Below, piece after piece: positions 1-57,899 of a stretch of 64,000 nucleotides of DNA (positions are counted from its first letter, which is position 1; every line of letters begins with the position of its first letter). Source of the DNA: Alphaproteobacteria bacterium. GTDB lineage: Bacteria > Pseudomonadota > Alphaproteobacteria > SP197. The stretch spans positions 899,241-963,240 of the forward strand of contig OZ242015.1 in assembly GCA_965204785.1 (NCBI GenBank), given 5' to 3'. The notes below the pieces were generated by a model. That model saw only the letters and a list, made by a program, of their open reading frames with translations, did not search any database and was not told the origin of the DNA. The translations under genes were made by a program, and so were the position numbers.

Positions 1-440
1 ACGACTAGGCGCCGCACATCGCGGCCCGTGCGTTTGGGCGAGCCCTTGGTCGCCAACAGGCACTGCTCGGGATTGGCCCGCGTCCAGTAGCCCATGCCCG
101 TGAAGAAGTCGGTGTCGGTATAGCCTTCTTCATGATCGGCCGAGGCATTGAGCTTGGCCCAGTAAAATCCGACGGTCTTGTACGTGAATCCCCAAGCGTC
201 GATCAGGTCGAGCGCGCGGGGCAAGTGGGTGTCGGTGGTCCACATCAGCAGGACGGCGTCATCGGCTGCCCAGTCCGCAACGGGAAGCGCTTTCATGTCC
301 GCTTGCAACATGCAGTCGTAATGGGCCTGGGCGCCCCGACCCTGGCCCTTGCGGCTCCATGTCGAGAAGTTCCAGGGCGGATCGGTGTAGATCACCGCAT
401 ACTGACCCGACTTCTTCGGCGCTCGCACGTGCATACTCAT
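1..440 (-). CDS. MT-A70 family N6-adenine DNA methyltransferase, 5' part only (gene runs off window start)
   Basis: Manual reverse translation from ATG at 440: MSMHVRAPKKSGQYAVIYTDPPWNF...GFTYKTVGFYWAK...GYWTRANPEQCLLATKGSP; DPPW catalytic motif typical of MT-A70; RBS aggaga upstream; not in ORF track because it lacks a stop inside the window. Confidence 0.7.
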   Translation of the reverse strand, partial: MSMHVRAPKKSGQYAVIYTDPPWNFSTWSRKGQGRGAQAHYDCMLQADMKALPVADWAADDAVLLMWTTDTHLPRALDLIDAWGFTYKTVGFYWAKLNASADHEEGYTDTDFFTGMGYWTRANPEQCLLATKGSPKRTGRDVRRLV

Positions 441-577
441 GGTGCAGGTTGTCTCCTGATTTATGCAATTAAGAAAAACCTGTAACTAATTGAGATTCAA
501 GAAAAATAAGGCTTATCTACAATTAAAATAGATATTGAGTTTCGCATTGCCTGTGACCACTACATGTTGTGGCACCT
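441..577. other. AT-rich intergenic segment, atypical for this 65% GC genome
   Basis: Runs such as aattaaaatagatattgag; sits between the MT-A70 start and the PhnD-like gene end. Confidence 0.5.
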
Positions 578-1390
578 TCAGGCCAGTTCAGGATAGCCGG
601 CCTTGATCGCCTCCTTTTCCATGGTGTCGATCCGGTCATAGGCGGAACGGGGAAGGCTTTCGAAACCGCCCAGCATCAACTGCTCACGTACGTTGGCCAG
701 CGATGAATCCGCAGCGGCTTCCAGCAGGCCGGCACGCAGGGCCTCGACCTCCTTGTCGGAGCGTCCGATATGGGTGACATAGGGCAGGCTGGGTGCTTTG
801 TCGGTCGCGGTCAACGGCTTCGTTCCGGTGGCCAGTTCGGGCATGTGCGCCAGCGTGAGGGCATAGGTTGCGCAATCGATGGCACAAATATCAGCCTTGC
901 CGCTGACCACCGCCTCCATGGAAGCGTGATGGCGGCCGGTTTCCAGCACGCCGGCGAAGAAACGGCCCTGTTCGGCATGGGGTGCGACCAGCGCACGCAA
1001 GGCGTTGAAGCCCGATTGGGAGTCATAGCCGTTCACGGCCACCGTGGCCCCGCGCATGTCCTCGATGGTCTGGCCTTGGCAGTCTTCGTGCACCAGCACG
1101 ACGCTGCGATAGGTCGCGCCTTCGCAATAGGGTGCGGTGTAGCAGGGTGTGGCGACCAGACGCAATTTGTCGGCAAAGTCGTGGGTCAGCGGGTAACCGC
1201 AGGTCTGTGAGAGAAGCAGGTTGGGAGAGGACCAATGGACGAGCCGGTCGCCGAAGTCGCCGCGGTCCATACGATCGGGAACATCCTGCAGGCCGTGCTT
1301 GCCGAACGTCCGCGACAGTGCCGACCACCAGGCATCCGTCGCCTCGCGGATCGGTTCCAGGTCATACATGGGCAGGCTGGCGATGTTCAT
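578..1390 (-). CDS. PhnD/SsuA-type (phosphonate-binding-fold) substrate-binding protein with no signal peptide
   Basis: 270 aa; pfam12974-like pattern (…YRSVVLVHEDCQGQTIEDMRGATVAVNGYDSQSGFNALRALV…SGKADICAIDCATYAL); no N-terminal signal; start overlaps GFA stop (ATGA). Confidence 0.55.
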   Translation of the reverse strand: MNIASLPMYDLEPIREATDAWWSALSRTFGKHGLQDVPDRMDRGDFGDRLVHWSSPNLLLSQTCGYPLTHDFADKLRLVATPCYTAPYCEGATYRSVVLVHEDCQGQTIEDMRGATVAVNGYDSQSGFNALRALVAPHAEQGRFFAGVLETGRHHASMEAVVSGKADICAIDCATYALTLAHMPELATGTKPLTATDKAPSLPYVTHIGRSDKEVEALRAGLLEAAADSSLANVREQLMLGGFESLPRSAYDRIDTMEKEAIKAGYPELA

Positions 1391-1803
1391 GTCTGGCGGC
1401 CGAGCATGCTACCTTCGAAAGCTTCCAGGCCATCGGTGATCTCGTACCAGTCCGGCTTGTCGCCGGTATGGATGTGCCGCACCAGCTTCAGATCTCCGGT
1501 CTCGTCCAGCGCACCTGCCGAGACGGCGGCGTAGCTCTCGAAAGTCGGTTCCCAGAAGAGGCTGGAGCCACACTCCTTGCAGAAACCGCGACGGGCCTTT
1601 TCCGATGACTTGAACCATTCCAGACCGCGGTCCTCGTCGATCGTCAGGGCTTCGCGGTCGCATGCGCTGTAGGCGGCGAAATTGCCGTGAGTTCGCTGGC
1701 ACTGGCCGCAGTGACAGGCGACGATCTGGCGCATGTTCTGGGTTACGTGGAAGCGCACGGCGCCGCACAGGCATCCGCCCGTCATTCTGCTGGCCTTGCT
1801 CAT
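1387..1803 (-). CDS. GFA (glutathione-dependent formaldehyde-activating / CENP-V) family protein
   Basis: GGCLCGAVRF…CHCGQCQ…FCKECGSSLFW zinc-binding Cys pattern. Confidence 0.8.
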   Translation of the reverse strand: MSKASRMTGGCLCGAVRFHVTQNMRQIVACHCGQCQRTHGNFAAYSACDREALTIDEDRGLEWFKSSEKARRGFCKECGSSLFWEPTFESYAAVSAGALDETGDLKLVRHIHTGDKPDWYEITDGLEAFEGSMLGRQT

Positions 1804-1813
1804 GGCGGGTTTC

Positions 1814-2674
1814 TCACTTCACGATCTGGTTGATCAGCTGTCGCGCCAATGCATGCACATCGGGTGGCTGTACGATGGAGGAACGTATAAGGAAGTCAAA
1901 ATGTTCCGTCAGAATGCGGATATGGTCGGTGCTGTTGAACACGAAATAGACATCGCCGGTGTAAAGCACGGCCCGGATGGGCCCGAAGATCGTGACCGGC
2001 GGTGCGTAATGTTCCAGCGCATCGAACAGAAACCAGCGCAGCGTCGGGTAGAGTTCATCGGTCAGGTGGGCGATGCGTTCGAGTTGCAGGCGCCGGCTCC
2101 GGTTCGACAGGTTGCGCCAGATGCCTTCGCCCCGGGCAAAGCCTTCGAGAGCCTGAACGGAACTGCAGATTTCGATGTCGGTCTCGGGCCGGCGGGTATA
2201 GGCGAGATTGTCCTGGGACGAACGGGTTGCCAGTTCCGCGCTCATACCCCGGCTGGCGCCAAACTCGAAGACGTTGACCTCATCGGTCTTTAGGAGGTCG
2301 GGCAGGGTGGTCGGAACGTAGCGAATTTTGTAGCCGGCCGCTTCGGTGTGCCACATCCGCAGACGCTCGTTGGCCGGGTCGGCCGCACCCGTGGCAATCT
2401 CCAGTGGCGCGCCCACGATCGCCTCTTCCGCCTGGTTTTCCTGGCTTAGCCCCAGCAGCCAGTCGGCGCTGACCTGCATGGCCTGGGCGATGGCGGCGAC
2501 GGTGTCGGCGCGTGGCAGGCGGTCGTCCCTTCCGGCCAGCAACTGCGAGAGCGTGGAGCGGTCCACGCCGATGCATCGGGCGAACTCGGCTTGGCGTCCG
2601 CCGCTGCGTTTGATGAGGGCTGCCAGGCGCTCGCGAAACACCCGGATGGATTGCTGTCGGTCAAAACAAGCCAT
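1814..2674 (-). CDS. XRE-family HTH transcriptional regulator with C-terminal regulatory domain
   Basis: N-terminal HTH_XRE (ERLAALIKRSGGRQAEFARCIGVDRSTLSQLLAG); 286 aa; divergent from the desaturase gene. Confidence 0.6.
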   Translation of the reverse strand: MACFDRQQSIRVFRERLAALIKRSGGRQAEFARCIGVDRSTLSQLLAGRDDRLPRADTVAAIAQAMQVSADWLLGLSQENQAEEAIVGAPLEIATGAADPANERLRMWHTEAAGYKIRYVPTTLPDLLKTDEVNVFEFGASRGMSAELATRSSQDNLAYTRRPETDIEICSSVQALEGFARGEGIWRNLSNRSRRLQLERIAHLTDELYPTLRWFLFDALEHYAPPVTIFGPIRAVLYTGDVYFVFNSTDHIRILTEHFDFLIRSSIVQPPDVHALARQLINQIVK

Positions 2675-2785
2675 GGATTTCCGAATTCTGACTGTTGATT
2701 TAAATCACCATATGCGGTGTTTGATGACAAATCGATGCAAAATGTGCCCAAATCCCTACAGACATTAGAGTTATATGACGTTTGA

Positions 2786-3787
2786 ATGAAGCTTCTGTGG
2801 TTTTGTGGGCGCATGACCTTATCGAGCGAAAACCCCGCCCTGTGGCACCGCTGGGAACTCCCCACCTGGGGTATTGCCACCCTGATCTATGGTTCCTGGT
2901 TTGCCCTGACCTGGTGGCACACCGTTCTGCCCGTCTGGTTTCTGATTCCGGTTGGTGCGGTTCTGGTATGCTGGCACGGTCACCTCCAGCATGAAGTGCT
3001 GCACGGACACCCCACGCGAATTGTCTGGCTGAACGAGTCGCTGGTCTTTCCCGCCCTCGGCCTGTGGTTCCCATACGGCGTCTACCGCGACAGCCACCTT
3101 GCCCATCACACCGACTGGCACCTGACCTGTCCCATCGACGATCCCGAGAGCTTCTATGTCACGCCAGAGGTCTGGGCGCGTCTGCCGCGTGCGTGGCAGG
3201 CCGTGCTGCGGTTCAACAACACCGTTGTAGGGCGTCTGCTGATCGGCCCCTTGCTTGCGACCTGGTCTCTCTATGGCGGGGCTGCGGTCAAGCTGGCGAA
3301 GGGCGATGCTACGGAGTTGAAGGCTTGGGTTCTGCATGCGGTGGGTTGCGCCCTCGTGCTCCACTGGCTGATCGTCGTCACGGCTTTTCCGCTCTGGGTC
3401 TATGCGCCCATGGCGTATATCGGCATCTCGCTCATCATGCTGCGTTCGTTCGGGGAACACAGGCCCGCTCCCGATGCCGCAGGGCGCATCTGCATCAACC
3501 TGGCAGAACCGCCCATGGCGCTGCTCTATCTCAACAACAATCTGCACGCCGTCCACCACGCGGCCCCCGGCATGGCCTGGTACGAACTGCCGCGCATGTT
3601 CCGTGCGGATCGTGAGCGGGTTCTTGAGCGCAACGGGGACTTTGTCTGGCGTGGTTACCGCGACCTGTTCCGCCGCCATTTTCTCACACCCAAGGACGAG
3701 CCGGTGCACCCTTATCACGACGACGACCATTGCCGTCCCGTCGCGCCCAGCAGCGGTCAGACCACTGCGATGAACTTTGTTCCCTGA
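2786..3787 (+). CDS. membrane fatty-acid desaturase family protein
   Basis: Three histidine boxes HEVLHGH / HLAHH / HAVHH; multi-TM; true start may be the Met at 2813. Confidence 0.8.
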   Translation: MKLLWFCGRMTLSSENPALWHRWELPTWGIATLIYGSWFALTWWHTVLPVWFLIPVGAVLVCWHGHLQHEVLHGHPTRIVWLNESLVFPALGLWFPYGVYRDSHLAHHTDWHLTCPIDDPESFYVTPEVWARLPRAWQAVLRFNNTVVGRLLIGPLLATWSLYGGAAVKLAKGDATELKAWVLHAVGCALVLHWLIVVTAFPLWVYAPMAYIGISLIMLRSFGEHRPAPDAAGRICINLAEPPMALLYLNNNLHAVHHAAPGMAWYELPRMFRADRERVLERNGDFVWRGYRDLFRRHFLTPKDEPVHPYHDDDHCRPVAPSSGQTTAMNFVP

Positions 3788-3888
3788 AACGCCGCTGTCG
3801 CGATTTCGTGCAAGCGAACGCGACGGTTCCCTACACTCGTGATCCACTCTAGCGTTCGAACTCTTCTCTTCAGTTCCTTCGGACGCTC

Positions 3889-4797
3889 ATGAACCCCAAC
3901 GAGCCAACCCGCGGTCTCGGCATGTCGATCGCGATCCCCACGCTGTTCGTGCTCTTGTGGAGCAGCGGCTTCATCGCCGCCAAGGTGGGCTTGAGCGACA
4001 GCGGTCCGCTGACCTTTCTTTCCCTGCGTTTTGCCCTTGTCACAATTCTTATGCTGATCGTTGCACTCGCCATGCGCGCGCCTTGGCCGGGTTCCTGGCG
4101 CGAGGTCGGACACCTGGCGGTGCTGGGCGTGCTGATGCAGGTGGTCTATTTCGGTGCGGCGTGGATTTCGATGTCCAGGGGTGTGGGCGCGGGCACCGCC
4201 GCGCTGATCGTTTCCATGCAGCCCGTTCTGACCGCCATTGTGGCGGGCAGGGTGCTGGGCGAACGGGTGGGGCCGCGCCAGTGGCTGGGTCTTGCCACCG
4301 GTTTTGTCGGTGTCGTGTTGGTGGTCTCGCAGAAACTCTCGTTAGGCCTTGGTTCGCCCGCCGGCATGCTGTGGTCGTTCATCTCTCTTTTGGGCATCAC
4401 GGCCGGAACGCTTTACCAGAAGCGTTTCTGCCCCACCATGGACCCGCGCACCGGCGGCCTGGTGCAGTTCATCACGGCAACCGCCATGCTGATGCCCTTG
4501 GCTCTCTTGCTCGAGGACTGCGCGATTTCCTGGAGCCTGGAATTCATCGGCGCGCTCTTCTACGTCGTATTTTTCCTCTCGCTCATTTCGGTGACCTTGC
4601 TGACGGTCATGATCAAACGCGGCCAGGCCTCGCGCATGACCAGCATGTTTTTCCTCGTACCGCCGCTCACCGCCGTTCTGGCCTGGATTGTCCTTGGAGA
4701 AACCATGAGTGGTTTAGCCGTCGTCGGTCTCGTCTGTGCGGCCATCGGCGTCGCCCTAGTGGTAGTGCCCGCGCGCAAGCCGCGACTGGCAGCATGA
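3889..4797 (+). CDS. DMT-superfamily (EamA-like) transporter
   Basis: 302 aa, 10 predicted TM helices, duplicated EamA-like halves. Confidence 0.8.
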   Translation: MNPNEPTRGLGMSIAIPTLFVLLWSSGFIAAKVGLSDSGPLTFLSLRFALVTILMLIVALAMRAPWPGSWREVGHLAVLGVLMQVVYFGAAWISMSRGVGAGTAALIVSMQPVLTAIVAGRVLGERVGPRQWLGLATGFVGVVLVVSQKLSLGLGSPAGMLWSFISLLGITAGTLYQKRFCPTMDPRTGGLVQFITATAMLMPLALLLEDCAISWSLEFIGALFYVVFFLSLISVTLLTVMIKRGQASRMTSMFFLVPPLTAVLAWIVLGETMSGLAVVGLVCAAIGVALVVVPARKPRLAA

Positions 4798-5693
4798 GAA
4801 GGCGGCTGGCCACGTTCACCTGGCGGCGTCTGGGTTGGGCGTTGCTGACTCTGGCCTTGGGAACGGCTGGCGCTCTGGTTTTCTAGGCCATCGGCGTTCC
4901 CGCGGCCTTCCTCTCCGGCCTCATGGTCGCGGTCGCCTTATGCGCGGTGCTGTGCGTGCCCGTCGACCTTGCCATGCCCTTGCGCGATGTCGCCTTTGTT
5001 GTGCCGGGAGCAATCCTGGGCACCGCCATGGATCAGGACGCTCTCCTCGCTCCAGGAATGGCCTGTCTCCATCGCGGGCCTTCTCCTGGGTTCTGTCATC
5101 CTCATGACCGTGGTGCCGCGCTACCTCACGCGCGTCCATGGCATCGATGACCGTACGGCCAAGCTCTGCGCCATTCTCCATACTCTGCGCCTCGCTGTCC
5201 TGTTGACGCTGATTCCCGCGACCGTGGCGCTGGCTTTCCACATGGAGGCCGCACAGATCGTTTTATGACGGACCTGATATGTCCTGGCCCGCGGCCGCGC
5301 TGGTTCTCGCCCTTTGTTTTCTGATCGTGCCGCCCGCGCGCCTGTTGCGCCTTCCCGCACCAACCTTCGTGGCGCCTCTCTATGGCCGGGCTGCTCCACG
5401 GGCAGATGCCGCTGGAACTGCTCTGGCCCTCGCTCATCGTCAGCGGTGCGGTGGTGGGCGCCTGGTTCGCCGGAACGACGCTGCGTTACCTCTGGGAGAT
5501 CATCAAGGTGGGACTGGGCGACATTGCGCTTGCCATCGGCATCACTGGCCTGCTGGCGTGGCTAGTCGCCATAATTACCGCGCTTCCCTTCGTGCAGGTC
5601 TGGCCTGCCTTCGCGCCCGGCGGATTCGACGCCATGCCGGTGCTGCCTTCTCCCTGGCGCTCGGCCCCGCCTTTGTCGCCAGGCGCCAGTTGA
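4794..5693 (+). pseudogene. AbrB-family (duplicated 'putative ammonia monooxygenase'-type) membrane protein, disrupted
   Basis: MRRRLATFTWRRLGWALLTLALGTAGALVF-TAG(4884)-AIGVPAAFLSGLMVAVAL…LRDVAFVVPGAILGTAM, then at least two frame changes (fragments 4969-5268, 5279-5737, 5382-5693: …LRLPAPTFVAPLYG / MAGLLHGQMPLELLWPSLIVSGAVVGAWFAG…). Confidence 0.55.
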
Positions 5694-5733
5694 TCCGCTT
5701 CCCGGCGATACCGTTCGTCTTCCGCCAACCGGC

Positions 5734-6315
5734 CTAAAGCGTCCTGCGTACCATGGGACGGCTGGGCAGGGGGCGGGCGACCTCGGTAAAACCGTTATCC
5801 TGAAACGCGCCAAGCGAACCGAAATAGAGCTCCATCCTGCCGGATTTGCCCTTTATCTCGACGGGATAGGCCTCCAGCGCGGTTGCTCCCAACTCACCTG
5901 CCTGACGAACCGCCGCAGCAATCAATGCCCGCATCAGCCCCTTGCGGCGGTACCTCTTGCGCACCACGAAGCAGGTGATCGACCAGACTTCGGTGTCATC
6001 GATCAGGGCAAAGGGTTTGGACCGGTTCAATCGGTCGTATTCCTGCCGCGGCGCTACCGCGCACCATCCCACGGGCGTCGCGCCGTCATAGGCCAGCAGA
6101 CCGGGCGGGCGGCCACTCCTGACCTTGGTCTCCAGCGTCGCCCGGTTGCCTTCGCCCCAGCCGGCCTTGAACTCCTTGTTGGGCAGATACCAGTAGGCGC
6201 ACCAGCACCGCTGCGGGTAGCTGCTGTCCCGGAAGAGAGCTTCGACATCGCCCCATCGCTCCGGCGTGGCCGGCGCAAAGGTGAAGTCCGTATCAAGCAT
6301 GGCGGGTGTCTTCAT
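5734..6315 (-). CDS. GNAT family N-acetyltransferase
   Basis: 193 aa; acetyl-CoA-binding region …VVRKRYRRKGLMRALIAAAVRQAGELGA…. Confidence 0.7.
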   Translation of the reverse strand: MKTPAMLDTDFTFAPATPERWGDVEALFRDSSYPQRCWCAYWYLPNKEFKAGWGEGNRATLETKVRSGRPPGLLAYDGATPVGWCAVAPRQEYDRLNRSKPFALIDDTEVWSITCFVVRKRYRRKGLMRALIAAAVRQAGELGATALEAYPVEIKGKSGRMELYFGSLGAFQDNGFTEVARPLPSRPMVRRTL

Positions 6316-6446
6316 TCGAGCATGGTGTCATCCCGGACAAGCGCCTGATGCGCGCAGATCCGGGACCTCGATAGGCAAACGTCCGTCTCGTATCACCCTG
6401 GCTTGCCCTCGCGTGGCTCGTTTGGCCGGGGTGACACCAAGTGGTG

Positions 6447-7982
6447 TCAATTGTCGTGGACACCGCCTTCTTCCTTGCGTTTGGCGACATAGGCATCGAG
6501 CTCTTCCCGGATGGCGGGATCGAGCGGCGGTTCCTCGAAGTTCTCCAGAAGCTGCTTCCAGATCTTGTTGGCGCGGGTTGCCGCGTCGGGACTGCCGGCT
6601 TCGACCCAGGTCTCGAAGTTGCGCCAGTCCGAGAGCATCGGCGCATAGAACGCGTGTTCGTAGCGGTCGAGCGTGTGCTGCGTGCCGAAGAAGTGGCCGC
6701 CGGGTCCAACATCGCGCATTGCTTCGATGCCGATCTCCTCGTCGTTCACGGTGACCGGCATCATGGTCTCGAACATGCCCTGGAGCATTTCGGCATCGAC
6801 GATCATCTTCTCGAAACTCGCCACTAGGCCGCCTTCCAGCCAGCCTACACCATGGTGGATGAAGTTGCCGTGGGCCAGGAACGCCGCCCACAGCGACATG
6901 CCGGTCTCATAGGCCGCCTGGGCATCGACGGCGTTGGACGCATTGACGTTGCTGGTGCGGAAGGGGATGCCATACTTACGCGCAAGCTGGCCACCCGCCA
7001 GCGTCGCCTTGACGTACTCGGGCGTACCGAAAGCCGGTGCGCCCGACTTCATGTCGACATTGCTGGTAAAGCCGCCATAGACCGCCGGCGAGCCCGGACG
7101 CACGAACTGGACCAGCGCGATGGTCGCCAACGCCTCGGCATTCTGCTGGGTCAGAGCGCCTGCCAGCGTGGTGGGTGCCATCGCGCCCAGTAGGGTGAAG
7201 GGCGTGATCGAAACCGGCTGGCCGTGGGTTGCCATCTCGATCAGGCCCTGGCTCATCGACTCGTCCAAGCGCAGGGGCGAGTTCGTATTGATCAGCGTGA
7301 TCAAGCCTGGCTTCTCGATCATCTCTTCTTCGGAGATGCCTCGCGCGATGCGGTTCATCACGATGCCGTCGCGGCTGCGTTCGGCGCCCAGCGCATAGGT
7401 GCGCCAGACCCGGTCGGTCTGGGTGATGAACGTCATGTAGCAGTCGAGATGCCGGGTCAGGGCCGGTAGATCGATCGGCTCCACCGGGTAGCCGGCGAAG
7501 AAGTGGATGCAGTTGAGGCTGGCTGCCACGCGCACCAGGTTCTGGAAGTCCTCGAACGTGCCCGGGCGACGGCCCTTGTCCATGTCCGAGCAGTTGGGTG
7601 GGCTGGAAACTGCCGCGACCACGATCCGGTTGCCGCCCAGAGTGATGCTCCGCTCGGGCATGCGGCTATGCATGGTGAATTCGGATGGCGCCTTGGCGAT
7701 CTGTTCCATCACCAGACTACGGTCCATGCGCACCCGCATGGCGCTGTCGTCCACATCGGCACCTGCCTTGCGGTAGAGACGCCGGGCCTCGGTCCCCATC
7801 ACCTCCATGCCCAGTTCCTCCAGAACCGTCAGGGAGGAATTGTGGATGTGCTCAAGCTGATCGGCGGAAAGCACGTCGAGCGGCGGGAAGGGGCTGCGCA
7901 CCTCACGCCAGGGAAGCTGTTCCAGAACCGGCTTGGAAGCCCGTCCAGCATCGCGGCGGCGTGAGGTTGAACGGCGGGCCAT
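6447..7982 (-). CDS. MttB-family (trimethylamine methyltransferase-like, non-pyrrolysine) methyltransferase
   Basis: 511 aa, full-length match to the MttB superfamily fold (…TLLGAMAPTTLAGALTQQNAEALATIALVQ…GHFFGTQHTLDRYEHAFY…); no internal amber codon. Confidence 0.8.
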   Translation of the reverse strand: MARRSTSRRRDAGRASKPVLEQLPWREVRSPFPPLDVLSADQLEHIHNSSLTVLEELGMEVMGTEARRLYRKAGADVDDSAMRVRMDRSLVMEQIAKAPSEFTMHSRMPERSITLGGNRIVVAAVSSPPNCSDMDKGRRPGTFEDFQNLVRVAASLNCIHFFAGYPVEPIDLPALTRHLDCYMTFITQTDRVWRTYALGAERSRDGIVMNRIARGISEEEMIEKPGLITLINTNSPLRLDESMSQGLIEMATHGQPVSITPFTLLGAMAPTTLAGALTQQNAEALATIALVQFVRPGSPAVYGGFTSNVDMKSGAPAFGTPEYVKATLAGGQLARKYGIPFRTSNVNASNAVDAQAAYETGMSLWAAFLAHGNFIHHGVGWLEGGLVASFEKMIVDAEMLQGMFETMMPVTVNDEEIGIEAMRDVGPGGHFFGTQHTLDRYEHAFYAPMLSDWRNFETWVEAGSPDAATRANKIWKQLLENFEEPPLDPAIREELDAYVAKRKEEGGVHDN

Positions 7983-8383
7983 GAATTTACTCCTTGGTTC
8001 CGGCGCGGCAAGGCTAGGCGTGCGCGGAATCGAACAACAAGCACCAACCCGTCACATTCCAGCCCGTTTGCGTCGTTGGCCGACGGATTGATACGATCGG
8101 TTCTCATCTGGAATCCGTGAGTTCTTCATAGGTACGCCTTGAGCGCCTGCCCGGGCGAACCGTCCGTCGAAGGTAGGCCGGACGGGCCACTCTTGCTTGG
8201 TTCAATTGCGTCCCTGACCGAGATCATTTCCGGCTGCACGCCACCAAAGCGTTGGGCATTCGGCTACAGCCTTCAGCGTGGGCATAGAGGCAAATTCCAC
8301 CCGCAGGCATGACATGGATCAATGCGGCGAGTCGGAACAGGCCGCGGATATCAGCGAATAACGCTCAATGGGCACCCGCCGAC

Positions 8384-8524
8384 ATGCAAGTTCAGAAAGC
8401 ACCCGATGATGCGCCCGCCGGTAGCAAGCTCCCGGAATGGTTCGTATTCCCGTTTCTAACGGTTTTCATCTAGCCCTTCGTCGCGGTCGGCGTGGTGGGG
8501 GTACTGGCGTGGTGGGGGTACTGA
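8384..8524 (+). pseudogene. napE: napE (small membrane subunit of periplasmic nitrate reductase) remnant
   Basis: MQVQKAPDDAPAGSKLPEWFVFPFLTVFI-TAG(8471)-PFVAVGVVGVLAWWGY; in-frame stop plus a 17-bp tandem duplication in the GGYGF-like region. Confidence 0.5.
8489..8522 (+). repeat. 17-bp perfect tandem duplication (ggcgtggtgggggtact x2) inside the napE remnant
   Basis: Direct reading of the sequence. Confidence 0.85.
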
Positions 8525-8577
8525 TTTGTCGTTTGGATGACTCAACTTATTGAGAGGCCGCCTAGCCCACCTGGCTC

Positions 8578-8877
8578 ATGACCGCACTCTGCAGCGGCAT
8601 CCCGGTCGATAGAGACCATGTCTCGGGGATCGTGGTCTTCCTCGGCCTGGCGGGTCATGGACCGACACTGGCTCGTCTCGCGGTGCCGCCGACGGCGATG
8701 ACCATAGCCCATGAAAGCCGCCGTGTCGCCCTTGTCGTCGAGACCGGGGACGAGCAGGGACTCGCCGATTGCGTCAACAGCCTGTCGCTGATGACCGGTA
8801 TCCAGGCAGCTTCGATAGCCTTTCACAGCATCGATCTCCAGAATGACGAGGTGCACCATGCCGTTATCGCGCCGTGA
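8578..8877 (+). CDS. napD: NapD, chaperone for periplasmic nitrate reductase
   Basis: HVSGIVVF…VALVVETGDEQ…GIQAASIAFH matches the NapD pattern (H.SslVV…klVVvlE…GVl.a.lvyH); the only apparently intact nap gene. Confidence 0.6.
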   Translation: MTALCSGIPVDRDHVSGIVVFLGLAGHGPTLARLAVPPTAMTIAHESRRVALVVETGDEQGLADCVNSLSLMTGIQAASIAFHSIDLQNDEVHHAVIAP

Positions 8878-10238
8878 TCTGATCAGGGCCCAGGCCGTGG
8901 CTGGCTTGCAACTCCCGTGCTCAGCCAGCCCCTCGAGCAGGGAATCGGCGACGTGGAACTCACTTGGCCGAAGGCGCCGTGCCGGTTCTGCGGTACCGGT
9001 TGTGGTGTGATGGTCGGTGTCAAGAAGGGGCGTGTAGTTGCCACCCATGGTGAGGTCAACCGTGGCCTCAACTGCGCGAAGGACGAGTTTCTATCGAAGA
9101 TCATGTACGGCGAGGATCGACTGATGCAGCCTCTATTGCGCATGGCCAATGGTGCCTACGACAAGGATAAGGTGAATTCACACCGGTCACATGGGCCGGG
9201 CTTTCGATGAGATGGCGCGCCAGCGGAAGCGGGTGCTGGCGAAAAAAGGGTCCACCGCGATCGGAATGTTCGGCTCCGGGCAGTGGAGCATCTGGGAAGG
9301 GCATGCCGCCAGCAAGTTGATGCGCGCTGGGTTTGGATCAAACAACCTCAATCCCAATGCCCGGCATTGCATGGCCTCGGCCGCTACGGCGTTCATTCGT
9401 ACGTTCCGCATGGACGAGCCCACGGGCTGCTATGACGATTTTGAGCATGCGGACGACTTCGTGCTCTGGGGCTCAAACATGGCCAAAATGCATCCGGTTC
9501 TTTGGACGCGCCTGACCGACCGCCGCCTAGGGCGTCCCGATGTGCGCGTCAGCGTGCTGTCGACCTAGTACGCACCGCAGTTCCGACTTGGCAGACCTGC
9601 CGATCATTTTCCGTCCTGGCACCGATCTCGTGATCGCCATCCACATCATTGCATCGGGCGCGGTGAACGAGTCATTCGTTTCTCAGAATGCCGGCTTCTG
9701 GCTTGGTAACACCGATGTCGGTTATGGCCTTCGCGACGAGCATCCTTTGCAACAAGCCGGCCAATGCGGGCGACGCGGGAGACATGTCGACGATCGACCT
9801 TCAGACCTATGCTGACTTCGTAGCGGATTACACGCTTGACCGGATCGCCGACCTCACCGGCGTGGAAGCAGACAAGCTGGAGCGTCTGGCCGCCGTCCAC
9901 GCGCATTCGGACCGCAAGGTGATGAGCCTGCGGACCATGGGTTTCAACCAGATGGAAGAAGGATACGCCAATCACGAGGTCGAGGCATTCGGGTTCTACA
10001 TTCAAAAGGGGCTGTTCGAGGAATACGCCAGTTTTGGTCACGGCCACGATCTCGACGATTTCGACACCTACTCACACCAACCGGGGAAACGCTGGTTGGT
10101 CGTCGACGGCCATGAGACACGCTGGTGCTATCGTGCCTGGGAGGACCCCTATGCCACGGTTGACGACGGTGTGCAGTTCTATGGCATGCCCGACGACCGC
10201 GCAAAAATCCCGGCGACGCCCCATGAACCGCCCGCCGC
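8858..10238 (+). pseudogene. napA: napA (catalytic subunit of periplasmic nitrate reductase), heavily degraded
   Basis: Tat signal [17 protein letters not shown] at 8858 overlapping the napD stop. NapA-like pieces sit in at least four frames (…[18 protein letters not shown]… / …[20 protein letters not shown]…[25 protein letters not shown]… / …TMGFNQ|[34 protein letters not shown]…). The junction TMGFNQ|MEEGY implies an internal deletion of roughly 300 aa, and the C-terminal ~150 aa are missing. Confidence 0.75.
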
Positions 10239-10425
10239 TTGCCCGCCAGGGCACCGATGCCGGACGTCAGATTCGGAACTATCCCGAACGATATCGGGGG
10301 CTATCAACTCACGTTGAACGCCAATACCTGTCTCACCTGCCATCGACGTCAGTATATCGAAGCCTTGAGCGCACCCATGATCTCCATCACTCATTTCAGG
10401 ACCGTGACGGCCGGATTGTTGAGAA
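10239..10425 (+). pseudogene. napB: napB (dihaem cytochrome c subunit) fragment: first haem site only
   Basis: …[46 protein letters not shown]… matches the NapB region PPMIPH..GYQ.T.N.N.CLQCH…AP.ISPTHF; signal peptide and second CxxCH lost. Confidence 0.55.
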
Positions 10426-10446
10426 ATGCGAAAGATGGGTGGGTTA

Positions 10447-10476
10447 TTGATGCGAAAGATGTTGTGACGGCGATGT
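10447..10476. repeat. left 30-bp terminal inverted repeat (ttgatgcgaaagatgttgtgacggcgatgt)
   Basis: Perfect reverse complement of 10833-10862. Confidence 0.85.
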
Positions 10477-10832
10477 GGGATTACGTGACCGGATGCGGGA
10501 TTCAACGGGATGTTGAGACAATCAATGCGCCCCCATCGCCTTCGGGGTCAGGGTCCGCGTCGTCGTCGAGGGCGTCGATGACGATGCGGGAGATCGCCTC
10601 GTTGTCCTCGGTCGAGAGGCCGAGGAGGAGCGCCCGCGACGCAGGCTGCGTCCTGAATAAACGCCTTGCGTTTAGTCGTTCAGTCGCCATGTGACCGCGC
10701 GCCCGCGCCCCCGATGCAAGGCCGCTTGCATGACTCCTGCAACGGCCCTGAAGCGCCCGTGAACGGCCCTCCCGGGAGGCTCGGTCCCCGGCCCGAATCG
10801 AACCCGAAATCAACAATGTGTTGAAATAATCA

Positions 10833-10862
10833 ACATCGCCGTCACAACATCTTTCGCATCAA
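10833..10862. repeat. right 30-bp terminal inverted repeat
   Basis: acatcgccgtcacaacatctttcgcatcaa, reverse complement of the left IR. Confidence 0.85.
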
Positions 10863-10894
10863 AAACCCGCGCGTTTTTCGCGTGCCTCTAGTCA

Positions 10895-11110
10895 GTGCGC
10901 CTTCCCGATGAGACCTGTGCCCGTCTCAAGTTCCTTGCGGAGAGAACGGGATGCACGGCCACATTCTACATTCGGGAAGCCATCGAACGGCATCTGGATG
11001 ATCTGGAAGGCCGCTATGCAGCCGAACAGGCGCTGATCGCCCACCGAAGATCCGGCGACCGCACGCTCACGCTGGACGAGCTGGACGCCGAACTTGGCCT
11101 GGGAAATCAG
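10895..11110 (+). CDS. ribbon-helix-helix (CopG/ParD-like) type II antitoxin; the ORF has lost its stop and reads through to 11323
   Basis: GTG start; MRLPDETCARLKFLAERTGCTATFYIREAIERHLDDLEGRYAAEQALIAHRRSGDRTLTLDELDAELGL = RHH fold then a ParD-like tail; begins 33 bp after the right IR. Confidence 0.55.
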
Positions 11111-11169
11111 GATCACGGCAAGAGCGGCCTAGCAGATCGGGAAACTCGGGTCGCGCTGACGTCACACGT

Positions 11170-11370
11170 ATTCAGGCATTATCTAGTAAACCGGATCGCC
11201 ATCCTCGGCGATCCCCGCCAGTTGATAAAGCCTCTCTGCTGCGCGGATCCGAACTGGGCAATTTCTGGCGCTGGCGCGTTGGAAATTTTCGCATTCTGTG
11301 TGACATGCAGGATACAGAACTGATTGTTCTGGTGGTTGAAGTCGGACATCGTCGCGAGGTCTGTCGATAG
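11170..11370 (+). pseudogene. ParE/RelE-family toxin remnant (C-terminal motif only, different frame from the antitoxin)
   Basis: Frame ending at TAG 11368-11370 reads …LLRGSELGNFWRWRVGNFRILCDMQDTELIVLVVEVGHRREVCR = canonical ParE/RelE C-terminus (…R.RvG.YRiiy.i.dd.l.vl.v.HRkdvY); no recognisable N-terminal half. Confidence 0.5.
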
Positions 11371-11439
11371 CGCGTGCGAAGCTGGGACCTCCACCACAAT
11401 CGTTCGACCGACGAGGTGAGCAGACGGGAGCAGGACGCC

Positions 11440-11622
11440 ATGGACAGCGACGATCTGGAACTCAGACGCCCGGACGACGGGCCGAAAAACCTGGAGGCGA
11501 TGTCGATCGAGGCGCTCCGCGCCTATGTCGGGAAACTCGAAGCCGAGATCGAACGCGTCCGCGACGTGATCAGGCAGAAGGAAGCCGCCAGAAATTCGGC
11601 TGCATCCTTTTTCAAGACCTAA
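11440..11622 (+). CDS. DUF1192-family small protein
   Basis: MDSDDLELRRPDDGPKNLEAMSIEALRAYVGKLEAEIERVRDVIRQKEAARNSAASFFKT, the conserved alphaproteobacterial DUF1192 pattern; an in-frame GTG at 11374 is also possible. Confidence 0.65.
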   Translation: MDSDDLELRRPDDGPKNLEAMSIEALRAYVGKLEAEIERVRDVIRQKEAARNSAASFFKT

Positions 11623-12169
11623 GTTCGGGCCTTTCCGCCGCTCGACCATGTAGACCAGCGTGGTCGCGCCGAACAAGGTCCACGGGTTCACAATGCCCAC
11701 GACGATCAGGAGAGCACCCAGGAGAAGGCTCGTGCACGCGGTCGTGCGGCCTGCGAACATCATCGTCGTCAGCGCATAACGCTTCGCGTGGCGGCCCGGG
11801 AGGAAACTCCCGAACAGGAAGACACCGGTGATCGCGCCCTGCAGGGCGCGGAAGCCCAGGAAGACCCAGAAACTGGCGGCCTGCGTGCGGCCAAGAGATG
11901 CGAGCGTGAAGACAAGAGCTGCCAGCTGGACGACCTCTTGTTTGTGAAGGGCGACTTATGGCGGCCGAGAGAAAGGGGCAACGTTATCGAGTGCAGCCTC
12001 ATGGCCGCTCCTGACGGCGTGCCGGGCCGGTCGGCGGAAATCCAGCGGGCAAGCGGTCGGAAGCCTTTTTGTCCACACCATCGATCTGCCGGATATGGTA
12101 TTGTGCTTGGGTAACCGGCGCGATATCTGGACGCCAACAGATAGAGTTGGACGAAAATTCGAGGACGTT

Positions 12170-20755: not shown

Positions 20756-20799
20756 CATGCACGGTATTGCCGTTTCCCATGCACGGTATTGCCGTTTCG
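20756..20799 (+). repeat. 22-bp tandem duplication (catgcacggtattgccgtttc[c/g] x2) spanning the start codon of the pal paralog
   Basis: Direct reading; the first copy's ATG is out of frame. Confidence 0.85.
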
Positions 20800-21286
20800 T
20801 TTTCAGCGCTGCTTTTGCCCGCCGCCTGCAGCAATCCTTCGGTCCAGGAAGATGAACGCGTGGTCTACAGCGTCGATGCCGACGATGGCGACGCACTTAT
20901 GGTCGACGACACGTGCTTGGCGGCTTTGAAGTGCTCACCGATCTGGATCGGAGGCGCCGGGTCACTGGCCAACCGGGAGAACGCATGACAGCATCACCCT
21001 GACACCGCAGGGCCAGCAAATCGTGAAGGGCTGGAGCGAATGGATGCGCCAGTTTCCCGAGGTTGCCGTGCGCATCGAGGGGCACGGCGACGAGCGCGGG
21101 ACGCGCGAATACAATCTTGCGCTCGGCGACAAGCGCGCCAATGCGGTACGTAATCTTATCATCGCCTACGGCATCGACCCCTCGCGGATCGGTGTCGTCA
21201 GCTTCGGCAAGGAGCGTCCGGTGGTTGCCGGCCATACCCAGAAGTCCTGGGCGCAAAACCGTCGCGGTGTTCTGACGATCATTTAG
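20779..21286 (+). pseudogene. second, disrupted pal copy (pal') downstream of cpoB
   Basis: Frame 1: MHGIAVSFSALLLPAACSNPSVQEDERVVYSVDADDGD… (signal+lipobox+acidic start, parallel to Pal) ending TGA 20988. Frame 2 (20990-21286): …ITLTPQGQQIVKGWSEWMRQFPEVAVRIEGHGDERGTREYNLALGDKRANAVRNLIIAYGIDPSRIGVVSFGKERPVVAGHTQKSWAQNRRGVLTII, an intact OmpA-like domain ~75% identical to Pal. Shared upstream motif ttctggccgtt. Confidence 0.6.
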
Positions 21287-25823: not shown

Positions 25824-27166
25824 GTCGACGTTATTTCGGAACCGACGGCATCCGCGGACGCGCGAATTTCGAGCCCATGACGGCCGAGATTGCGCTGAAA
25901 GCCGGCATGGCCGCGGGTCTGCATTTTCAGGGCGGCAACCATGTCCATCGCGTCGTGATCGGCAAGGACACGCGTCTTTCCTGCTACATGATCGAAAACG
26001 CCATGGCCTCGGGCTTCGTATCGGTCGGCATGGAGGTGCTGCTTCTGGGGCCGACCCCCACGCCCGGCGTCGCGACTCTGACGCGCTCCATGCGCGCCGA
26101 TCTGGGCGTCATGATCTCGGCTTCGCACAATTCCTTCGAGGACAACGGCATCAAGTTCTTCGGCCCCGACGGTTTAAAGCTCTCCGATGAGGACGAGGAA
26201 ACGATTGAGGCACGCATGGACGGCGAGCTGACATCCATGCGCGCCGGTCCGCAGGCCCTGGGGCGCGTACGCCGTCTACAGGGCGCGATCGGCCGCTATT
26301 CGGAATTCTGCAAGAGCGCTTATCCCCGAGACCTGCGGCTTGACGGCCTGCGCATCGTCATCGACGCGGCCAACGGGGCCGGTTATCGCGTCGCTCCCGA
26401 AGCGCTTTGGGAACTGGGTGCCGAGGTCATTCCCATCGGCGTCGAACCCAATGGCACGAACATCAATCTCAACTGTGGCTCGACCTCCACCGCTGTCATG
26501 CAGAAAGCGGTTCACGACTACCGCGCCGATCTGGGCATCGCGCTTGACGGCGATGCCGACCGCGTGCTGATCGCAGACGAGAAGGGCAAGATCGTCGACG
26601 GCGATCAGATCATGGCGCTGGTCGCCGACTGGATGCTCGAACACGGCGAACTGCGCGGCGGCGGTATCGTTGGCACCGTGATGTCGAACCTCGGCCTGCA
26701 GCGCTTCATGGAGTCTAAGGGCCAGGTGCTCGAACGCACCAAGGTCGGCGACCGTTATGTCGTCGAACGCATGCTCGAAAAGGGCTTCAACATGGGCGGC
26801 GAGCAGTCCGGCCACATCATCTTCTCGGACCATTCCACCACGGGCGACGGTCTCATCGCCGCACTCCAGGTGCTCGCCGTGCTTGTCGAGCGGGAAAAGC
26901 CCATGAGCGAACTTGGTTGCCAGTTCGAACTCGTGCCCCAGCTTCTCAAGAACGTAAGCTTCCAGGGTGGCGCACCGCTGGAATCCGACAACGTCAAGGC
27001 GGCACTCGCTGCCGCCGAGGAGCGTCTGGGCCAGGACGGCCGTCTGGTGGTGCGTAAGTCGGGCACCGAACCGCTCATTCGCATCATGGCCGAACACGCC
27101 GATTCGGCCCTCGTCAACGCCGTCGTCTCCGAACTGGAAACCACCGTTCAGCGCGCGGCCGGTTGA
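25820..27166 (+). CDS. glmM: phosphoglucosamine mutase GlmM
   Basis: [16 protein letters not shown]…; active-site [13 protein letters not shown]. Confidence 0.95.
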
Positions 27167-27178
27167 AAAGTTGATGTC

Positions 27179-27219
27179 CTCCCGGCTCCCCCCGGACCAA
27201 GTCCGGGGGGAGCCGGGAC
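27179..27219 (+). terminator. GC-rich perfect hairpin (18-bp stem, 4-nt loop) just after glmM
   Basis: tcccggctccccccggac-caag-gtccggggggagccggga; no U-tract. Confidence 0.4.
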
Positions 27220-27308
27220 CTCGACAGGCAGGCTCGTAATTCTCGGGGCCTGGATCGAGGACACCTTGCCTGTGGTGGACATAGCTTTCTTGAAGAGGGT
27301 GCTGGCGA

Positions 27309-27723
27309 CCCTCACACCACCACGCCTATCGACGGCGGTACGTCGCGTGTCAGGTTGGCGACCATGTCGAGACCGCTTGCCAGATCCTCGTGGGTCATCG
27401 GGCCGGTCAGCGACAGGCGCACCGCGAAAGGCACGGTATCGCGCCCGATGGCGAAGGATTCCGCAGGCGTGAGCACCACACCCGGCCGCTCGGCGGGGCG
27501 GGTGAAATGTCGGACGTCAGGGCTCGGGCAGGGTGAGCCATCGATGGAAGCCGTTGGGATAGGCTTGGAACTCCAGTCCGGCCAGATGTTTGCGGGCGAT
27601 GGCCTCTAGTGCCCGTGCTTCCGCGCGCACGATGTCTTCGAACGTCTCGACCGAGCCTGCCTCCATCCAGCGCCTGGCCAGTTCGGTCATCAGCAGCGGG
27701 GCATGCAGGCTGGTCGCGGCCAT
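27309..27723 (-). pseudogene. C-terminal fragment of a PLP-dependent aminotransferase / MocR-type protein (N-terminally truncated, one frameshift)
   Basis: …LMTELARRWMEAGSVETFEDIVRAEARALEAIARKHLAGLEFQAYPNGFHRWLTLPEP then +1 shift …RPGVVLTPAESFAIGRDTVPFAVRLSLTGPMTHEDLASGLDMV…; TGA immediately upstream of the first Met. Confidence 0.5.
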
Positions 27724-27779
27724 GATCCGCGTGCCTCGTCACTCTGGCCTTCGGACGTTACCAGAAGGAGACAAGACCA

Positions 27780-27996
27780 TGACACAGATTGCCCATCATC
27801 ATCTCGCCGACGCCGCCCAGCACATCTGGAACATGGTCTCTGCACCGTTGCCGTGCCCGACGCCCTGATGACCTGGCGGTAACGCGGGCAGACCCGATCA
27901 GCCCTGCGTCAGATGGACGACAGTCTGCTGCGCGACATGGGCATCGACTGCATCTCGGCCCAGCACGAGGTGCGCAAGCCATTCTGGAAAGCCTGA
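27780..27996 (+). pseudogene. DUF1127-family small protein, frameshifted
   Basis: C-terminal frame gives …SALRQMDDSLLRDMGIDCISAQHEVRKPFWKA* (DUF1127 hallmark …L.DigI.R.di…kpFW); N-terminal MTQIAHHHLADAAQHIW… and W..RCRARR are in two other frames. Confidence 0.45.
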
Positions 27997-28273
27997 AATA
28001 TCCGTGTCATTCCGGCTCTCCGCTCCTCCGCTACGGTCGGGATGGCATACTTGATGTGGTCATGATGACGTTCTGCGGCGAAAGCGGAGCGGCCTCCGAC
28101 CGGTGCAACCGCGCACCAACGACTGAGGTTAAACAAAATCCGCCGGGGTGACAAACTTATCTCCATCGCCGTCATCATCGCGTAGGATGATTTAGTAGCA
28201 AGAACCGGGTCGTTGAACCCATGTGCGTATTCTACTTTCAACCTGTCGCATGGAATCACTCGGAGACAGGACA

Positions 28274-31343: not shown

Positions 31344-31914
31344 ATGGCACTCCAGATTCGCAAGCCAGTGACACACATGGACGAGACCCTGATCGAGGGC
31401 GGTCGCGGGGCTGAAAAGCCATGGTTCCTGATGGCCGTGGCAACCGTCGTCGCCAGCCCTTGGGTTGGGCAAGGGATTGTCAAGGATCTGTGTCCGGAGA
31501 TCCTTTCTCTGGCACCGCCTCTGGGCGATGTCCTGATGTCGCGTGTCCTGGAAGCCTGTGGGGCCGAGACCTACGGCAAGTCCGCCGTCGTTGGCCTCAA
31601 CGGCGAGACTGAGCACGGCAGCGGCTTTCATCCACACCCTGTGCTTCGGCAACAAGTACCGCGAGGCCGTGGGCGGCACGTCCTATCTTTCGTTCACCAA
31701 CACGCGGTCGCGGTCCGGACAGTCGATCCAGATTCCGATGATGCACAAGAACGATCCCGGCTTCCGGTACCACTACATCACGCTCGAATTCTCCATCCAA
31801 GACGCGCCCGGCCCCGACGAGATCGTCGTCGCCTGCCACCACGTCCGCCCGCCCGCACCACCATATCGGCAACCGCTATTCAGACATGGATGAGATGGGC
31901 ATCAAGCAGGAGGA
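31344..31914 (+). pseudogene. DUF1185 ('amino acid synthesis' family) protein, at least two frameshifts
   Basis: MALQIRKPVTHMDETLIEGGRGAEKPWFLMAVATVVASPW…YGKSAVVGLNGETEHG | frame 2 …AAFIHTLCFGNKYREAVGGTSYLSFTN…IQIPMMHKNDPGFRYHYITLEFSIQDAPGPDEIVVACH | frame 3 …RPHHHIGNRYSDMDEMGIKQEDG*. Confidence 0.55.
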
Positions 31915-31940
31915 CGGCTGAGTACGCAGGAGTTCTCGGC

Positions 31941-32213
31941 ATGAAGCAACGCGAGGTCACGTGCGCCTGTGGCGCGTTCAAGGCGCTTTGCCGGGGCGAA
32001 TCGGTGAAGATTTCGCTCTGCCATTGCCTCGACTGTCAGAAACGCACGGGCAGCGCCCTCGGCATTGCCGCGTTCTTCGAGCGCCCCGCCGTCGCGGCGA
32101 GCGCGTTTGCCGATCCAGCCCTTTCCCGCCCTGACCCAGTCGGTCTTCTCGGAGCGCCGCCACGGCTGGGTGGTCGAGATCCCAACGACACGGTAAGGGC
32201 AGGCCAGCCATGA
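31941..32213 (+). pseudogene. second GFA-family protein, apparently truncated/frameshifted at the C-terminus
   Basis: MKQREVTCACGAFKALCRGESVKISLCHCLDCQKRTGSALGIAAFFERPAV… then the conserved tail (…VFSERRHGWVVE) is in another frame. Confidence 0.45.
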
Positions 32214-33860: not shown

Positions 33861-35060
33861 TTATCCGTCGAAATGCTTGGCGCGGTGCACCTCGTCTCCG
33901 ACCAGCAGGGTCATCATAACCTCGGTCTCGCCGATCTCGCGGGGATCAATGGCGAAGATGTCGAGGTCGAGGACGATGAGGTCAGCGAACTTGCCCTTGG
34001 CGAGCGTGCCGATATCGCGCTCGCGCCAGGCGCCCGCAGTTGCGTTGACGGTATAACCCTTCATCGCGCTCTCGATGTCGATCCGCTATTCGGGCAGAAA
34101 CACGGGTAATCGCCCTCGCGGCGTCCGGGCGATCTGGATGATGGGGAAGGGGTTCTGCGTGGAAACACCCCAGTCGCTCGATAGCGCATGGGGCGCGTTT
34201 TTCGCCCACCATGACGATCTCCACCGACGGTTCCAGGCGCGCCCAGTTCGCGGAAACGGGAAATGTAGGCGGGATCGATCATCTGGACATGGGCAAGCTG
34301 ATGGAGCGCGGACCAGAGACCGTCCGCCTGGATGGCCGCCTCGATGCAATCCAGCGCCACGCGCGCCGCGCCTTCGCCGATGACATGGACATGCAATTGG
34401 AGCCGCGCGGCATCGAACGCGACCATGAAACGCTCCAGGTGCTCGCGGTCGAACATCAACTCGGCGTTGCCGCCGTCCTCGCTGTAGGGTTCGATCATCA
34501 GCCCGGTGCGGTTTTCCATCACGCCGTCCAGGGAGAATTTGGCCGAATGCACACGCGCCATGGGACACGAAAAGTCGCGCCGAAGCATGGTGAGGCGCTC
34601 CATCGCGCCTTCCAGCGTGTCGGTCGGGTTGACCAGCGCGGTTGGCTGCCGCGCGCAGGGTCAGCGCATCCAGCACGCCGGTGATGCCGAAGCGGTTGCA
34701 TTCGGCCTAGCCAAACAGCACATCCTCCGCATAGGTGTTGTCAGGCAGTTCCGGCATGCGCTCGGAGAGCCAGTGCGTCGCCTTTTCATAAAGCAAATCG
34801 GTAACCCGTCCGTCTGCGTCACGCACTAAACGCCCATCCTCGGGACCATCGTTCACGCCGTTGGCGAGATCCCGGATGGCGTGGTTTTCTCCCAGGGCCA
34901 CGATGTGCCCGTCCTTGACCGCCGGGGCCTCGACATGGGGATGGGCGATGTCCATGGTGCGGATGTTGTCGTTGATGACAATGAGATGAGTGCGCTGGCG
35001 ATCACGTCGGGAAGCTCCGGACAGGTGGAATTGAGCGCTGTCTTTGCGCCCGATCGCAAG
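33861..35060 (-). pseudogene. amidohydrolase-3-family metal-dependent hydrolase, several frameshifts and deletions
   Basis: N-term (34707-35060) …HLIVINDNIRTMDIAHPHVEAPAVKDGHIVALGENHAIRDLANGVN…; middle (34061-34603) …FMVAFDAARLQLHVHVIGEGAARVALDCIEAAIQADGLWSALHQLAHVQMIDPAYISRFRELGA; C-term (33861-34064) …MKGYTVNATAGAWRERDIGTLAKGKFADLIVLDLDIFAIDPREIGETEVMMTLLVGDEV; all three pieces in different frames. Confidence 0.55.
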
Positions 35061-35072
35061 CCTTGTGAAGCG

Positions 35073-57883: not shown

Positions 57884-57899
57884 CTGTCCAACGCTCAGC

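Follow-up and report, generated by a model that had tools for sequence, protein, structure and literature searches.

We analysed a 64,000-nt stretch of DNA from an Alphaproteobacteria bacterium (GenBank assembly GCA_965204785.1, contig OZ242015.1, forward-strand positions 899,241 to 963,240), referred to here as the window, and numbered from its first nucleotide. Positions 8384-10420 on the plus strand are derived from a nap operon, and their sequence makes it almost certain that they represent a unitary pseudogene cluster, the remains of an alphaproteobacterial periplasmic nitrate reductase operon of the napEDABC type that lost its function long ago and has decayed neutrally since. The relic is an ordinary dead operon of a well-known kind, in an uncultured marine alphaproteobacterium. 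It extends from the ATG of napE at 8384 to the final NapB-homologous codon, which ends at 10420; hence, ~2.0 kb is left of an operon that measures 4.2 kb in Paracoccus.

Six-frame reading, Pfam, NCBIfam and tblastn all assign this region to nap genes in the order napE-napD-napA-napB. Pfam matches to NapE (44 bits), Molybdop_Fe4S4 (45 bits), Molybdopterin (61 bits) and NapB (46 bits) all exceed their cut-offs, and tblastn with the Nap proteins of Paracoccus pantotrophus (napEDABC, plasmid pPAN2, locus L001) and Sinorhizobium meliloti (napEFDABC, locus L002) gives the same four gene assignments as Pfam. When concatenated, the NapA fragments score 642 and 640 bits with the NCBIfam NapA models, versus 150 bits for formate dehydrogenase alpha subunit (Fdh-alpha), 111 for NasA and 89 for NasC; the NapA equivalog cut-off is 904, and the shortfall is due solely to the ~40% of the protein that is missing. 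The solved structures that best match the NapA remnant, using HMMER against the Protein Data Bank, are the NapA chains of 1OGY, 3ML1 and 2NYA, and blastn detects ~70% identity to napA or nap operons in 202 plasmid records (Cereibacter, Paracoccus, Sinorhizobium and others). An earlier, sequence-only reading of this stretch had described a decayed nap operon with the same gene order at 8384-10425, and our data support that description, with coordinates that agree to within ~5 nt.

Lesions in the nap genes and the age of the decay

The first gene, napE (8384-8581, plus strand), is a pseudogene that scores 39.9 bits with the NCBIfam NapE model (cut-off 68.8). The sequence-only reading had reported an in-frame TAG and a 17-bp tandem duplication in napE, and both are present: the TAG, at 8471-8473, occupies the position of a conserved Trp (TGG-to-TAG), and the duplication is exact, with copies at 8489-8505 and 8506-8522. 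A frameshift-aware alignment adds a second stop, TGA, at 8522-8524.

The napA pseudogene spans 8858-10245 on the plus strand, as judged from tblastn, frameshift-aware alignment, MAFFT alignment with 66 NapAs, the match to 1OGY_A (Protein Data Bank) and the NCBIfam score of 642 bits. Lesions were mapped with a purpose-written frameshift-aware protein-to-DNA alignment, and cross-checked with MAFFT and HMMER. The gene had been described as retaining its Tat signal while being split over at least four frames; the split and the signal are both there, but we now count six segments separated by five frameshifts, at ~8905, 9169, 9195, 9566 and 9759, in addition to small in-frame losses of 4, 4 and 2 codons. 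Alignments show that the remnant retains the twin-arginine leader (SRRDLIRA), the Fe-S motif CRFCGTGC...C (on to NRGLNC) and the motif NARHCMAS, the cysteine of which we take, from established knowledge of NapA structure, to be the molybdenum ligand. The Pfam TAT_signal model does not match the napA remnant. An open reading frame (ORF) of 209 codons, derived from napA, is found at 9688-10317.

A large in-frame deletion is located at 9954/9955. It removes ~232 codons, equivalent to residues 382-613 of S. meliloti NapA (residue 381 is joined to ~614) and, in the mature chain of R. sphaeroides NapA (1OGY_A), to residues ~363-584, and with them part of the molybdopterin-binding domain. This is the loss that had been recognised at a TMGFNQ junction; alignment of the fragments to NapA confirms that it is in frame, but puts its size at ~232 residues rather than the ~300 proposed. 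We attach no meaning to the preservation of frame, since this has a 1-in-3 chance of occurring and there are frameshifts on both sides. The top protein match (P0001; 726 bits, 564 aa) was considered as a relative that might share the deletion, and was rejected as an internally duplicated artefact of enterobacterial type.

A second large deletion, which is absent from the sequence-only reading, takes NapA residues 714-834 together with NapB residues 1-52. As a result, tblastn and frameshift-aware alignment place NapA residue ~713 next to NapB residue ~53, fused out of frame, at 10229-10245 on the plus strand. Within this junction, the NapA frame yields HEPPAA(CP), and the same bases yield RPPLARQ when read in that of NapB (part of the stretch covering NapB residues 53-72), and a CCGCC-rich run there may represent microhomology. 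NapA homology ends at reference residue 713. The missing C-terminal ~121 residues are the site of the Pfam Molydop_binding domain (PF01568) in intact homologues, and this domain has no Pfam match in the napA remnant.

The napB remnant (10229-10420, plus strand) matches positions 51-93 of the 127 in the Pfam NapB profile, and is detected by tblastn in two frames. Residues ~53-123 of ~161 remain. As had been noted, only the first haem site (CLTCH) is kept; the second CxxCH, which would lie beyond 10420, the C-terminus and the signal peptide have all been lost, and we additionally identified frameshifts at ~10280 and ~10398. The reported absence of napC also holds: tblastn detects no match to NapC or NapF within the 64-kb window, with nothing better than E = 0.58 for NapC. 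The search covers 64 kb of a ~3.75-Mb genome, and any Nar or further Nap elsewhere would lie outside that scope, as does the functional loss of nitrate respiration in the lineage that the sequence-only reading had proposed. NapC is the tetrahaem quinol dehydrogenase that serves as the electron donor of Nap, with NapGH as the alternative.

Based on these lesions, we predict that no active enzyme can be made from the relic: NapA would lack ~232 internal residues of the molybdopterin domain and a C-terminal domain of ~121 residues, and is interrupted by five frameshifts; NapB would lack its signal peptide and second haem site; napE is interrupted by two stop codons; and there is no NapC to oxidise quinol and donate electrons.

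We estimated the age of the decay from an alignment of the reconstructed NapA remnant with 66 intact NapAs (64 database homologues and the two references). Of 102 columns with no variation among the intact proteins, 15 differ in the remnant (14.7%), as compared to a leave-one-out mean of 0.6% for the intact NapAs themselves; two of the 15 are junction artefacts, and ~13% are changed without them. Over the columns in common, identity of the remnant to the two reference NapAs, from Paracoccus and Sinorhizobium, is 65-67%, whereas the references are 85% identical to each other. Excess change at invariant columns, combined with low identity to the references, is the signature of old decay, with a long period of neutral drift, and not that of read error, as far as can be judged from the sequence.

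A lineage-specific segment and the origin of the operon

The window is core chromosome of an alphaproteobacterium with a GC content of 62%, the nearest named relatives of which are metagenome-assembled genomes (MAGs) labelled 'Rhodospirillales/Rhodospirillaceae bacterium'. Exact look-ups of the MttB, RuvB and YebC proteins and of the napD product found none of them on record; a 100%-identical YebC is encoded on a 3.75-Mb NCBI/ENA contig. Core genes in the window are all full length, and include yebC-ruvCAB, tolQRAB-pal, tilS, ftsH, folP, glmM, fabDGF and gmk, as well as ksgA, pdxA, surA, lptDFG, pepA and holC. Comparison with related loci divides the region around nap into two conserved blocks. 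The left block, window positions 1-8083, is colinear with metagenome loci L143-147, in the order MT-A70, phosphonate-binding protein, GFA, helix-turn-helix (HTH) gene, desaturase, EamA, AbrB-family gene, GNAT and mttB; MttB is 91% and 85% identical to its counterparts in relatives. Nucleotide homology to L144/L147 stops at 8083/8075, to the left of a lineage-specific spacer (8084-8383) that reaches from the breakpoint to napE. The right block, starting at 11406, is colinear with loci L083-090 (DUF1192, yebC, ruvCAB and on to tol-pal), and YebC identity is 92-84%. This right breakpoint and the adjoining DUF1192 gene (together 11406-11622, plus strand, with the gene itself at 11440-11622) were defined by a Pfam DUF1192 match of 55.8 bits and by tblastx and tblastn colinearity with L083, L087 and L088. 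Beyond the breakpoints, relatives have other genes: a second mttB and hut-like genes adjoin the left block, and ADH and TrcR genes the right block. JGI 3300028829, the only metagenome with loci for both sides, has the blocks on different contigs. The breakpoints at 8083/8084 and ~11405/11406 thus delimit a lineage-specific segment of 3.3 kb (8084-11405), situated at a junction formed by rearrangement or deletion, and this segment contains the nap relic, an inverted-repeat element and the remnant of a toxin-antitoxin pair.

The inverted-repeat element (10421-10888, 468 bp) starts one base after the end of NapB homology. Its arms, at 10421-10476 and 10833-10888, are 56 nt long and 86% complementary, with a perfect 28-nt core, GATGCGAAAGATGTTGTGACGGCGATGT, at 10449-10476 and 10833-10860; this 28-mer occurs twice, versus 0 occurrences expected. 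The left arm also holds two copies of a 12-mer direct repeat, ATGCGAAAGATG. The ORF in the interior of the element has no Pfam match, inspection revealed no direct repeat flanking 10421-10888, a further copy of the element was found neither elsewhere in the window nor among the 147 loci that we fetched, and the plasmid database has no match to it. Downstream, at 10895-11375 on the plus strand, is a degenerate type II toxin-antitoxin pair, consisting of a ribbon-helix-helix (RHH)-type antitoxin frame followed by the remnant of a RelE/ParE toxin. The antitoxin frame appears open from 10895 to ~11105, and scores 17 bits with RHH_3, below the cut-off. Three-frame reading of the toxin identifies an in-frame stop and a frameshift, with the C-terminal half (...WRWRVGNFRILCDMQDTELIVLVVEVGHRREV) still readable. 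Annotated RelE/ParE toxin genes in the plasmid database match by blastn at ~11251-11362; all of these matches are in the toxin region, outside the inverted-repeat element.

We propose that the operon was functional in an ancestor, and that at least three separate deletions subsequently took more than half of the original ~4.2 kb. The right-hand truncation, which affects the 3' end of napB and napC, may be tied to the DNA that now abuts it, i.e. the inverted-repeat element and the dead toxin-antitoxin pair, and would then have arisen inside the same 3.3-kb segment, where the chromosome was rearranged or lost DNA. In this scenario, loss of nap would be one instance of a more general decay of accessory genes that affects this genome.

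An alternative possibility, less likely but one that we take seriously, is that nap was never functional in this lineage, having arrived broken, or been inactivated at once, on a horizontally acquired island that also carried the toxin-antitoxin pair and the inverted repeat and has since collapsed to 3.3 kb. Consistent with this, related loci, whether they match the left or the right flank, contain no equivalent of 8084-11405; its inverted repeat and RelE/ParE-type pair are cargo of a mobile type; and nap is often plasmid-borne in alphaproteobacteria, as illustrated by the 202 plasmid records. Moreover, we did not find the nap operon of any relative. None of the related loci that we fetched, L083-090 and L143-147 included, carries nap at this position. 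When species-representative genomes were scanned with MttB, the nearest were L003 (81% identity) and L034 (79%), which have only mttB in common with the window and no nap within 10 kb of it. A scan of metagenome contigs with the reconstructed NapA returned 52 loci, with a best identity of 60% and no nap, intact or decayed, from a close relative; the highest NapA identity anywhere was ~67%. By contrast, the extent of the decay implies long residence, and there is no integrase, transposase or tRNA at the segment borders; Rfam and tRNA scans of the window detected nothing. GC content at third codon positions (GC3) in the nap frames is 0.71-0.77, only slightly below that of most host genes (~0.72-0.82). 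The comparison with relatives, which had been suggested as a way to find an intact nap locus, thus revealed no nap at this position, and the operon may be ancestral or island-borne. Nonetheless, an island would bear on the origin of the operon only; the locus is dead either way.

The open napD frame and the reality of the lesions

The sequence-only reading singled out napD as the only gene of the cluster that looks intact. The napD-like frame (8578-8877, plus strand) is indeed uninterrupted over 99 codons; at one end it shares ATGA with the napE stop and at the other it runs 20 nt into napA, as in the references, and its GC3 of 0.74 is coding-like. Intactness is, however, not established, because family similarity is weak and scores are below cut-offs: 19.4 bits with Pfam NapD (cut-off 28), and 19.7 bits with NCBIfam NapD versus 31.7 for Paracoccus and 40.5 for Sinorhizobium, all three being under that model's cut-off of 113. 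The predicted product is 24% identical to S. meliloti NapD over 80 aa. The open frame and its coding-like composition could be taken to mean that napD, or the 209-codon napA-derived ORF, is still useful to the cell, for example as a chaperone for another Tat substrate. We consider this very improbable. NapD scores less well than the two reference NapDs; its dedicated partner, the NapA signal peptide, is on a dead gene; and scans upstream of napE for promoters, terminators and FNR boxes (TTGAT-N4-ATCAA) detected nothing above chance, such that there is no promoter signal upstream. Furthermore, we calculated that at the lesion density of the relic, ~1 per 165 nt, a 300-nt frame would be open by chance with P ~0.16, and an open napD frame is therefore no evidence of retained function. 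Most simply, the frame is a chance survivor.

Slightly less probable again is an artefact, with the operon being intact in the organism and the lesions coming from read errors or a collapsed assembly. The assembly appears to be derived from a metagenome, and such assemblies can carry indel errors. We reasoned from the neighbouring genes, which had been described as intact: 19 syntenic flanking genes (14,298 nt) align over their full length and in one frame to orthologues in related metagenome contigs with zero disruptions, as compared to at least 10 frame-disrupting lesions in ~2 kb of nap. The frameshift sites are not in homopolymer runs, and read error would leave unexplained the TGG-to-TAG change, the 17-bp duplication, the three deletions, each hundreds of bases long, and the 14.7% change at invariant residues; such errors do not typically produce stop codons or the loss of several hundred bases. 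Together, these observations support the earlier view that the lesions are genuine, and make sequencing error a very unlikely cause of them. Lastly, although Fe4S4 and molybdopterin domains are common to all of these enzymes, an origin of the fragments from another molybdopterin oxidoreductase, such as an assimilatory nitrate reductase or formate dehydrogenase, was tested and is excluded by the NapA-specific scores, the NapA structure matches and the flanking NapE, NapD and NapB homologues in operon order.

Some points weigh against our reading of a once-functional operon in neutral decay. The evidence that the lesions are real is strong but indirect, being drawn from the assembled sequence. 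The link of the inverted-repeat element to the truncation of napB and napC is suggested only by their exact adjacency. Both the ancestral state and the supposition that nap ever worked in this lineage are inferred, since our searches found nap, whether intact or decayed, in no close relative. Finally, with the napD frame open, a residual role is formally possible.

Erosion of accessory genes and comparison with known systems

The nap relic is not the only decayed locus in the window. About ten accessory genes or remnants, nap included, look decayed within the 64 kb. An AbrB-family (PF05145) membrane protein pseudogene (4794-5710, plus strand) carries four frameshifts, one stop and a deletion of ~26 residues when compared with L144, where the orthologue is intact; the genes on either side of the pseudogene are undamaged. 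Between DUF1192 and yebC is a remnant of a major facilitator superfamily (MFS) transporter (11653-11841, minus strand), corresponding to residues 250-312 of 397; the gene is intact in L083-085 and absent from L087-090. An OmpA-family paralogue with three apparent frameshifts (20788-21283, plus strand) has an OmpA2-like N-terminus and a C-terminus that is 83% identical to OmpA3, and looks like a fusion of two extra OmpA genes that are present in L083. On the minus strand, Pfam matches identify an Amidohydro_3 gene in at least three fragments (33864-34085, 34061-34603 and 34710-35072) and an isochorismatase gene (35076-35775) that is split over two frames, with 35302-35775 corresponding to profile positions 1-109 and 35076-35300 to positions 113-169. 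Domain matches in an ORF at 31344-32213 (plus strand), to the N-terminal half of AA_synth (positions 1-97 of 175) and part of GFA (positions 3-50 of 115), suggest that two truncated genes have been fused by deletion. Two low-GC patches (0.54-0.55), at 57360-58345 and 62387-64000, may be foreign or decayed DNA; the first includes a weak remnant of an IS1595 zinc ribbon (57792-57944; 20.9 bits, below the cut-off), and the second a UvrD-like helicase ORF (62387-63937) with the initial ~158 positions of the helicase domain missing. There is no convincing gene in the ~1 kb (27166-28213) between glmM and an Ada-like regulator. Two minus-strand frames with high GC3 in this interval (27315-27605 and 27520-27738) resembled the C-terminus of an aminotransferase/MocR protein by eye; they have no Pfam match, and we did not count them as a pseudogene.

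Given that nearby accessory genes have decayed too, general erosion describes the fate of nap better than does a loss targeted at nitrate reduction. That this erosion may be genome-wide is hinted at by how old the relic is, by its location where two syntenic blocks meet, and by the other decayed accessory genes clustered in the window. We tentatively suggest that the genome is in early-to-middle reductive evolution, with the nap relic as one marker, although we would put this at slightly less than an even chance. The core genes of the window are intact beside the decayed accessory ones, and two blocks, taken to be ancestral, meet across the 3.3-kb scar. If the density of decay in the window holds over the ~3.75-Mb chromosome, this uncultured Rhodospirillales-like bacterium would have several hundred pseudogenes. 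If true, such a number would fit the usual pattern of genomes that have recently moved to a restricted and possibly host-associated life, for which nitrate reduction in the periplasm became dispensable. For annotation, the nap ORFs should be flagged as pseudogenes, rather than as 'molybdopterin oxidoreductase' or 'NapB' proteins, and metabolic reconstruction of the MAG should not count this locus as a source of Nap activity.

It is well documented that lineages which change niche lose respiratory operons, including nap, to pseudogenisation. The relic resembles the napEDABC operon of Paracoccus pantotrophus in its gene order, its location on a single strand and its overlapping napD and napA frames; NapA residues 125-246 are 78% identical to those of Paracoccus, and the DNA is ~70% identical. 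Unlike the Paracoccus operon, which is intact, every gene other than napD is disrupted, and napC is missing. With respect to structure, the remnant is most like NapAB of R. (Cereibacter) sphaeroides (1OGY; 613 bits): it aligns to residues 1-369 and 583-682 of chain A, and the Fe-S cysteines and NARHCMAS are kept. By contrast, the remnant has nothing equivalent to residues ~363-584 and 683-802 of the mature chain (802 residues), and NapB has one of the two haem sites. A parallel for the decay itself is provided by the host-adapting Salmonella Typhimurium ST313 lineage 3, which has extensive napA deletions (PMC8018540). This is an event of the same kind, set in a lineage whose genome is degrading more widely (PMC8018540). 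The two cases differ in that Salmonella belongs to a different phylum-level lineage and has a different ecology; moreover, the Salmonella lesions are recent, whereas the relic described here, with its 14.7% loss of invariant residues, is old.

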